From: a virus
DNA: 64,000 nt
IMG/VR virus record: IMGVR_UViG_3300029288_006769
Span: 122,367-186,366 of that record
Strand: one strand, 5' to 3'
Made by a program: the position numbers and the translations under genes. Positions 61,073 through 61,116 of the stretch are shown piece by piece (position 1 is the stretch's first letter; every line of letters starts with the position of its first letter). The notes beneath the pieces are model-generated. The model was not told the DNA's origin. It saw only the letters and a program-made list of their open reading frames with translations, and searched no databases.

Positions 61073-61116
61073 TTGTCCAAGAGAGGATTTGAACCTCCAC
61101 GAGAATTACTCTCGTT
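61073..61116 (-). repeat. tRNA-Leu 3'-half remnant (variable arm + T-arm + 3' acceptor)
   Basis: about 90% identical to the 3' portion of the adjacent tRNA-Leu(GAG): CGAGAGTAATTCTCGTGGAGGTTCAAATCCTCTCTTGGACAA. Confidence 0.6.

Follow-up and report, generated by a model that had tools for sequence, protein, structure and literature searches.

The tRNA array of this viral DNA holds, immediately beside an intact tRNA-Leu(GAG) gene, what looks like the 3' half of a tRNA-Leu. Is this half gene a copy made when something integrated or recombined here, as a sequence-only reading had proposed, or is it what remains of another gene? We addressed the question in the 64,000-nt stretch from which the locus comes (the window; positions refer to it unless a relative is named) and in related contigs.

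ARAGORN finds 25 tRNA genes in the window, every one on the minus strand, among them the neighbor of the fragment:

61132-61214, minus strand: intact tRNA-Leu(GAG) (Rfam tRNA, 50.7 bits; ARAGORN 61131-61215)

Local alignment of this gene with the 90 nt downstream of it gave 39 identical columns out of 42, with one 1-nt gap, across the variable arm, the T arm, the 3' acceptor strand and the discriminator. The two sequences share an exact 28-nt core at 61077-61104 (blastn-short, E = 6.6e-11), and the alignment score against the fragment was 67 for tRNA-Leu(GAG) and no more than 36 for every other tRNA in the window. Read along the minus strand, the discriminator A of tRNA-Leu(GAG) is followed by 17 nt and then by the Leu(GAG)-like stretch. 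This similarity is far beyond chance; the partial copy that had been described at 61073-61116, with about 90% identity and a gap of 16-17 nt, is real and correctly located by local alignment.

The window encodes a DnaE-type polymerase, an NAD synthase and an AAA ATPase, its GC content is about 30-38% in all 2-kb windows but one, and its exact proteins are present on a contig of 424,144 bp. We saw no structural phage proteins among the ORFs sampled in the window. It looks like part of a very large phage-like genome, and the designation 'phage' is likely to be right. Relatives were not found among GenBank phages by megablast of 60500-62300, and a sensitive blastn search of the same phages returned tRNA-level matches only, at 69-82%, including matches to Lak megaphages. 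Searches of IMG/VR with the tRNA-end pattern or with two neighboring proteins produced no relatives, and a metagenome scan with a pattern internal to the fragment had no match, that collection evidently lacking the JGI samples that contain it.

Useful relatives came from three other routes. Homologues of a 56-aa ORF downstream of the fragment (60650-60820) led to contigs L007 and L008. A spacer pattern led to L023, a JGI contig of 111,633 bp. An exact look-up of the neighboring HNH protein returned five contigs from five samples, three of which span the fragment: L001 (JGI 3300014205), L002 (JGI 3300037067) and L003 (ENA ERZ27247363), from three samples. L007 (NCBI JAQUND010000028.1, in GCA_028717785.1) entered the database in a 'Candidatus Nanoarchaeia archaeon' MAG. 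It shares synteny with the window, is 93-99% identical to it in several blocks, and carries the dense tRNA array; probably it belongs to the same huge phage-like group and was binned wrongly. A further relative, L006, stops about 170 nt short of the array. Upstream of tRNA-His, at 62505-63140 on the minus strand, the window has a 211-aa ORF without known family, which is 82% identical in the lineage of L023 and L006 and is missing from L007, where a gene with an N_methyl domain is followed directly by tRNA-His.

At the orthologous position in the relatives, in the interval between tRNA-Leu(GAG) and tRNA-Lys(UUU), ARAGORN finds a complete gene for a different leucine isoacceptor:

L007, 9679-9762: intact tRNA-Leu(CAG)
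L008, 42-125: intact tRNA-Leu(CAG)
L023, 6214-6298: intact tRNA-Leu(CAG)

The L007 gene is a proper class II tRNA: it scores 53.4 bits in Rfam, and its fold (-28.3 kcal/mol, z = -2.8) is a cloverleaf that includes an extra arm. In three-way alignments of the window, L007 and L023, the window has one contiguous 40-nt gap with colinear flanks, and there are no other indels in the flanks of the Leu(CAG) block. The missing 40 nt, TAAAC-GTCCAAGTGGCGGAACGGTAGACGCATTAGTTTCA, lie within a block that is nearly identical to L007. They comprise the last 5 nt of the spacer between tRNA-Leu(GAG) and tRNA-Leu(CAG) and tRNA positions 1-35, ending at C34-A35 of the CAG anticodon. Across the breakpoints L007 reads AAATAAACT/TAAAC-GTCCAAG...TTTCA/GAGACTAA (slashes mark the ends of the gap), and in the window the junction is AAACT/GAGAC, between 61123 and 61122. 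The gap cannot slide in either direction; therefore, the junction is without microhomology. What is left in the window, as judged by alignment to the relatives, is the following:

61123-61131, minus strand: leftover spacer, 9 nt (AAATAAACT) of the original 14 nt (alignments with L007 and L023)
61074-61122, minus strand: 3' remnant of tRNA-Leu(CAG), 49 nt, identical at 49/49 positions to the last 49 nt of the L007 gene and at 44/49 to L023
61120-61122, minus strand: anticodon base G36 with A37 and G38
61115-61119, minus strand: 3' strand of the anticodon stem
61100-61114, minus strand: variable arm
61082-61098, minus strand: T arm
61075-61081, minus strand: 3' strand of the acceptor
61074, minus strand: discriminator A

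The fragment thus has what distinguishes a truncated tRNA pseudogene: an intact, colinear orthologue in relatives, homology over its whole length, and a lesion that recurs in several contigs. We put the probability at roughly 93% that a 40-nt deletion left it behind as the last 49 nt of a dead tRNA-Leu(CAG) gene. A tRNA-Leu(CAG) gene would once have stood in tandem after tRNA-Leu(GAG), and one non-homologous 40-bp deletion in the window lineage, with no microhomology at the junction, would have removed the end of the upstream spacer, the 5' acceptor strand, the D arm, the 5' anticodon stem and the anticodon loop through C34-A35. With the true parent gene as the reference, the homologous remnant is slightly longer than first described (61074-61122). 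The idea of an insertion or recombination event inside the array likewise holds in part: there was apparently a rearrangement, in the form of an illegitimate recombination that deleted 40 nt, and no insertion.

The polarity of the change would, by parsimony, be loss in the window lineage. The tRNA-Leu(CAG) genes of L007 and L023 are only 92% identical to each other and both lineages keep the gene. With just two diverged haplotype groups that retain tRNA-Leu(CAG) to compare, loss is favored by parsimony and because a 40-nt insertion that happened to complete a perfect cloverleaf is implausible.

If the fragment descends from tRNA-Leu(CAG), its resemblance to tRNA-Leu(GAG) would reflect the paralogy of two tandem leucine isoacceptor genes and not, as the sequence-only reading had it, a duplicated half of tRNA-Leu(GAG): the fragment matches the other gene at 49/49 positions and tRNA-Leu(GAG) at 39/42. 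Over their full length the two intact genes are 74-77% identical (65/85 in L007, 63/85 in L023), and over the last 25 nt they agree at 24/25 positions where both are intact. The sole acceptor difference is GGGCA in tRNA-Leu(GAG) versus GGACA in tRNA-Leu(CAG), each of which pairs with its own 5' strand (GCCCAAG and GTCCAAG, respectively); the A in the TTGGACA of the fragment fits the Leu(CAG) acceptor stem, GTCCAAG/CTTGGAC. The resemblance to tRNA-Leu(GAG) would be visible because only the conserved half of tRNA-Leu(CAG) survived. This 3' T-arm/acceptor motif is a common tRNA-Leu sequence: a scan of GTDB genomes with the pattern yielded no relatives of the window, and its matches, in MAGs of Patescibacteria and Gammaproteobacteria, were all single cellular tRNA-Leu genes.

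What caused the deletion is a separate matter, and the best-surviving alternative concerns the surroundings of the fragment. Two endonuclease-like genes lie among the tRNA genes:

61480-62085, minus strand: HNH endonuclease-like gene, between tRNA-His and tRNA-Tyr (Pfam HNH, E = 2.7e-9)
59768-60526, minus strand: gene with a DUF559 domain (Vsr-like endonuclease fold), between tRNA-Val and tRNA-Trp (Pfam DUF559, E = 3.9e-13)

Both are probably free-standing homing endonucleases. Neither is present in L007 or L023, where tRNA-His and tRNA-Tyr are adjacent and tRNA-Val and tRNA-Trp are separated by a gap of about 210 nt, at which the blast alignment breaks. The order in those two relatives is His, Tyr, Lys(CUU), Phe, Leu(GAG), Leu(CAG), Lys(UUU), Lys(UUU), a small ORF, Val and Trp; the window has His, the HNH gene, Tyr, Lys(CUU), Phe, Leu(GAG), the fragment, Lys(UUU), Lys(UUU), the small ORF, Val, the DUF559 gene and Trp. 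A second DUF559 (Vsr-like) gene, probably likewise a free-standing homing endonuclease, is situated amid tRNA genes at 52395-53327 on the minus strand.

The array is strongly mosaic. In comparison with L007, tRNA-Tyr and tRNA-Lys(CUU) are barely alignable. tRNA-Leu(GAG) is 85% identical (71/84), with compensatory changes in the anticodon stem, and the sequence from its T arm to the start of the second tRNA-Lys(UUU), Lys(UUU)-2, differs by one substitution, the deletion aside. Lys(UUU)-2 is again divergent, and Lys(UUU)-1 is identical. The tRNA-Leu(GAG) of the window matches that of L023 at 82/83 positions; tRNA-Leu(GAG) and Lys(UUU)-2 are L023-like and the remnant is L007-like. L002 is a natural recombinant: it is window-like (99.6%) from 62377 to 59457, the block from the HNH gene to tRNA-Trp, and has L023-like gene content beyond. 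L006, of the L023-like lineage, comes from the same sample as L002, and because of this shared sample the window-type and L023-like lineages can be taken to co-occur.

The deletion could be collateral damage from a homing-endonuclease break, made by the HNH or DUF559 enzyme or by that of a co-infecting relative and imprecisely repaired. This account is compatible with a dead tRNA-Leu(CAG) gene and concerns only its origin. The deletion allele is seen on one haplotype alone, the one that has the HNH gene at a distance of about 360 nt and the DUF559 gene at about 550 nt; none of these three features is present in L007 or L023. The array is made up of blocks whose identity runs from about 100% down to roughly 80% or less, and L002 is a recombinant. 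There is precedent in T4, in which SegB lies in the tRNA cluster, recognizes a motif in the T-psi-C stem-loop and drives replacement of tRNA-region markers (PMC2330249), and nuclease genes have been found at the borders of the regions that phages exchange (PMC10448857). However, the linkage comes from only two haplotype groups and is inseparable from shared ancestry, and neither endonuclease has a known cleavage site. The breakpoints fall in a spacer and an anticodon loop, not in a T-loop, and homing is normally repaired by homologous gene conversion and not by a blunt deletion. We therefore regard an endonuclease break as the cause of the deletion as speculation, and an unlikely one.

The next question is whether the remnant still does anything. 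Neither ARAGORN nor Rfam (at E<=1) calls a tRNA on 61074-61122. The fragment lacks the 5' acceptor strand, the D arm and the 5' anticodon stem, and so has neither a complete cloverleaf nor a paired 7-bp acceptor stem. An acceptor stem is needed for RNase P processing, CCA addition and charging. Because its 5' acceptor strand is absent, an RNA made from the remnant would be expected to undergo none of these steps; most likely, it would be transcribed as part of the spacer between tRNA-Leu(GAG) and tRNA-Lys(UUU) and then discarded.

The loss of the gene itself was probably nearly neutral. There is no second tRNA-Leu(CAG) in the 64-kb window. CTG is the rarest leucine codon in 45 long ORFs (55 of 1152 leucine codons, 4.8%; 4.1 per 1000 codons), and an isoacceptor for that codon remains:

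58015-58099, minus strand: tRNA-Leu(UAG) (ARAGORN)

tRNA-Leu(UAG) can read CUG by wobble. The loss would probably be tolerated because of the rarity of CUG, this wobble reading and, presumably, the host's own tRNA. Among the four intact tRNA-Leu genes of the window, tRNA-Leu(UAG) is the only one that encodes its 3' CCA (...GGGCACCA); the other three end at the discriminator.

An alternative to a dead gene is that the remnant has been kept for a function, as a processing signal, as a decoy for host nucleases that target tRNAs, or as the 3' half of a split tRNA. The remnant shows no decay relative to L007 (49/49), nor does the spacer that follows it (64/65), while divergence in nearby tRNA genes reaches about 20%. 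A recent deletion or a recently shared block is the likely reason, and constraint would also fit. Its variable-arm and T-arm hairpins are intact in the predicted fold. The window also encodes RNA-ligase-like and polynucleotide-kinase-like proteins, which suggest an arms race over tRNA, and phage tRNAs have been documented as anti-defense tools (PMC11555353, PMC13096335). Near the arrays, at 46292-47311, 10633-11595 and 7625-8554 (all minus strand), we noted ORFs resembling an RNA ligase, a polynucleotide kinase and a tRNA methyltransferase, and in the distant relative L010 the region 18066-20204 encodes Thg1, an RNA ligase and a tmRNA. The presence of tRNA repair and modification genes by the arrays suggests pressure from host tRNA-targeting nucleases.

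Against a retained function, the block is equally conserved where tRNA-Leu(CAG) is intact, so that its conservation would reflect how recently the block was shared and not selection on the fragment. The remnant and spacer together fold no better than shuffled sequence (z = -0.56), the remnant has no Rfam match, and the truncation is confined to one lineage. The 5' half of tRNA-Leu(CAG), which begins GTCCAAGTGG, has no match within 3 mismatches in the 64-kb window, and hence a separately encoded, matching 5' half, as a split or permuted tRNA would have, is absent there. We find a functional remnant very improbable. Even the broader proposition that the half-tRNA is either the footprint of endonuclease-triggered remodeling of the array or a small tRNA-like decoy or processing RNA against host tRNA-targeting defenses strikes us as a long shot. 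The locus would have wider consequences only if the remnant were expressed as a stable RNA or the deletion were induced by an endonuclease.

Two other arrangements were considered and rejected. The recurrence of ACCAGAATG downstream had brought up a permuted tRNA, with the 3' half preceding the 5' half; the spacer is unchanged after the intact gene in relatives, and no 5' acceptor strand to match the remnant turned up in the window. Weak similarity of the trailers had brought up a tandem 58-nt duplication, which was rejected on the same grounds. The sequence downstream of the remnant comprises two features:

61009-61073, minus strand: spacer of 65 nt between the former tRNA-Leu(CAG) and Lys(UUU)-2, identical at 64/65 positions to each of L007 and L023
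60922-61008, minus strand: tRNA-Lys(UUU), copy 2, the downstream neighbor (ARAGORN, 89 nt; Rfam tRNA, 61.6 bits)

The spacer is near-invariant in two diverged lineages even though divergence reaches about 20% in the tRNA genes next to it. A structured RNA or a terminator was not adopted as an account of it: the spacer has no stable fold and does no better than shuffled sequence (z = +1.37), and we found no terminator in 61009-61073. There is one weak sigma-70-like match (61079-61051, 9/12). A lysine-rich micro-ORF starts with the ATG at 61072 (MKVKGTRMDKDDKSDKRKKIIL...) and has one substitution per lineage (two in total), both synonymous and at third positions. We did not adopt it either, since the changes number just two, a convincing ribosome-binding site is lacking, and the frame continues into the tRNA with a C-terminus that varies.

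Lys(UUU)-2 has an unusually long, class-II-like variable arm and folds as a cloverleaf with an extra hairpin. Among bacterial tRNAs, normally just those for Leu, Ser and Tyr have a long variable arm. Long-arm tRNA-Lys(UUU) genes of 84-89 nt occur in the window (60922-61008, minus strand), in L023 (6363-6451) and in the distant relative L010 (3936-4019), while L007 has a normal 74-nt tRNA-Lys(UUU) in the same slot. The L010 gene has the same architecture with an arm of GAAC/GUUC versus GAGU/ACUC in the window, a covariation that argues in favor of a real extra arm. We found no description of a long-variable-arm tRNA-Lys(UUU) in the literature; it could be an anti-defense variant or a tRNA of switched identity.

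An assembly or sequencing artifact, in which two similar tandem tRNA-Leu genes were collapsed into one, is a still weaker explanation. An assembler might, in principle, be confused by tandem paralogues that share an identical core of 28 nt. However, L001, L002 and L003 are 100% identical to the window over 60500-62300, junction included, so that the window shares its junction with three other contigs, which come from three samples and at least two pipelines (JGI, and a k141 assembly in ENA), and L002 holds it in a recombinant genomic background. A repeat collapse would also remove about 98 nt, the length of one repeat period, and join homologous positions; the 40 nt missing here lie between non-homologous points. 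Because the junction recurs without a single difference in the three other contigs, we consider it highly improbable that the deletion is an assembly error.

The original proposal, that an element entered the 3' end of tRNA-Leu(GAG) and duplicated an att core, is hardly credible: a partial 3'-end copy does adjoin the tRNA on the same strand and an integrase gene lies about 9 kb away in the relative contig L006, but the two copies are only 17 nt apart, and those 17 nt proved on comparison with relatives to be native and not foreign (9 nt of original spacer and 8 nt of Leu(CAG) anticodon loop and stem); the copy fits tRNA-Leu(CAG) better than tRNA-Leu(GAG); the relatives have two complete tandem tRNA-Leu genes in place of a single-tRNA 'empty site'; and the flanking ORFs scanned with Pfam gave HNH and DUF559 endonuclease-like domains and no integrase. 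Nor did this precise position gain or lose a mobile gene.

How the locus compares with known systems follows from these results. In an att duplication, direct repeats bracket an inserted element, usually with an integrase, and element-free relatives show one uninterrupted tRNA. The fragment shares with the tRNA 3'-end repeats that integrases make (attL/attR) its position, near a tRNA gene and on the same strand, and its content, an incomplete copy of the T arm and the 3' end of the acceptor. Unlike them, it has no intervening element bracketed by repeats, it derives from a different tRNA gene, and its relatives have two whole genes. The main value of the analysis is this correction: partial tRNA copies in phage tRNA arrays should not be taken for att scars unless comparative data are at hand.

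Split and permuted tRNA genes, such as those of Nanoarchaeum equitans and Cyanidioschyzon merolae, offer a second likeness, a lone 3' half broken in the anticodon loop. Here, unlike in split tRNAs, the window has no 5' half or complementary leader, and the gene in the relatives is ordinary and continuous. The break also falls between positions 35 and 36, whereas the canonical break of split tRNA genes is at 37/38.

The array as a whole resembles the SegB region of T4, with free-standing endonuclease-like genes between tRNAs that are present in some relatives and absent in others, patchwork flanks and recombinants. SegB is a GIY-YIG enzyme, whereas the genes here are of the HNH and DUF559 types, known from their sequence, and their link to the deletion is an inferred one. 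The closest parallel is with the tRNA clusters of T4-like phages, in which related genomes differ in the presence, absence or inactivation of single tRNA genes: T2L, RB1 and RB3 are without several of the T4 tRNA genes (PMC2330249), and tables of T4-like genomes include 'pseudo' tRNAs called by tRNAscan-SE (PMC1524935). Large phages were thus already known to vary in tRNA content and to have truncated or pseudo tRNAs. Unlike the T4-like cases, the inactivation here is resolved to the base, as a 40-nt deletion that ends inside the anticodon, and the genome is an uncultured element of about 424 kb without a close phage relative in GenBank. What is new is a cleanly resolved instance in an uncharacterized huge phage-like genome: a base-resolved example of how the tRNA repertoire of such genomes can shrink, by a small deletion in the isoacceptor for the rarest codon, within an array that is a recombination mosaic seeded with endonuclease-like genes.
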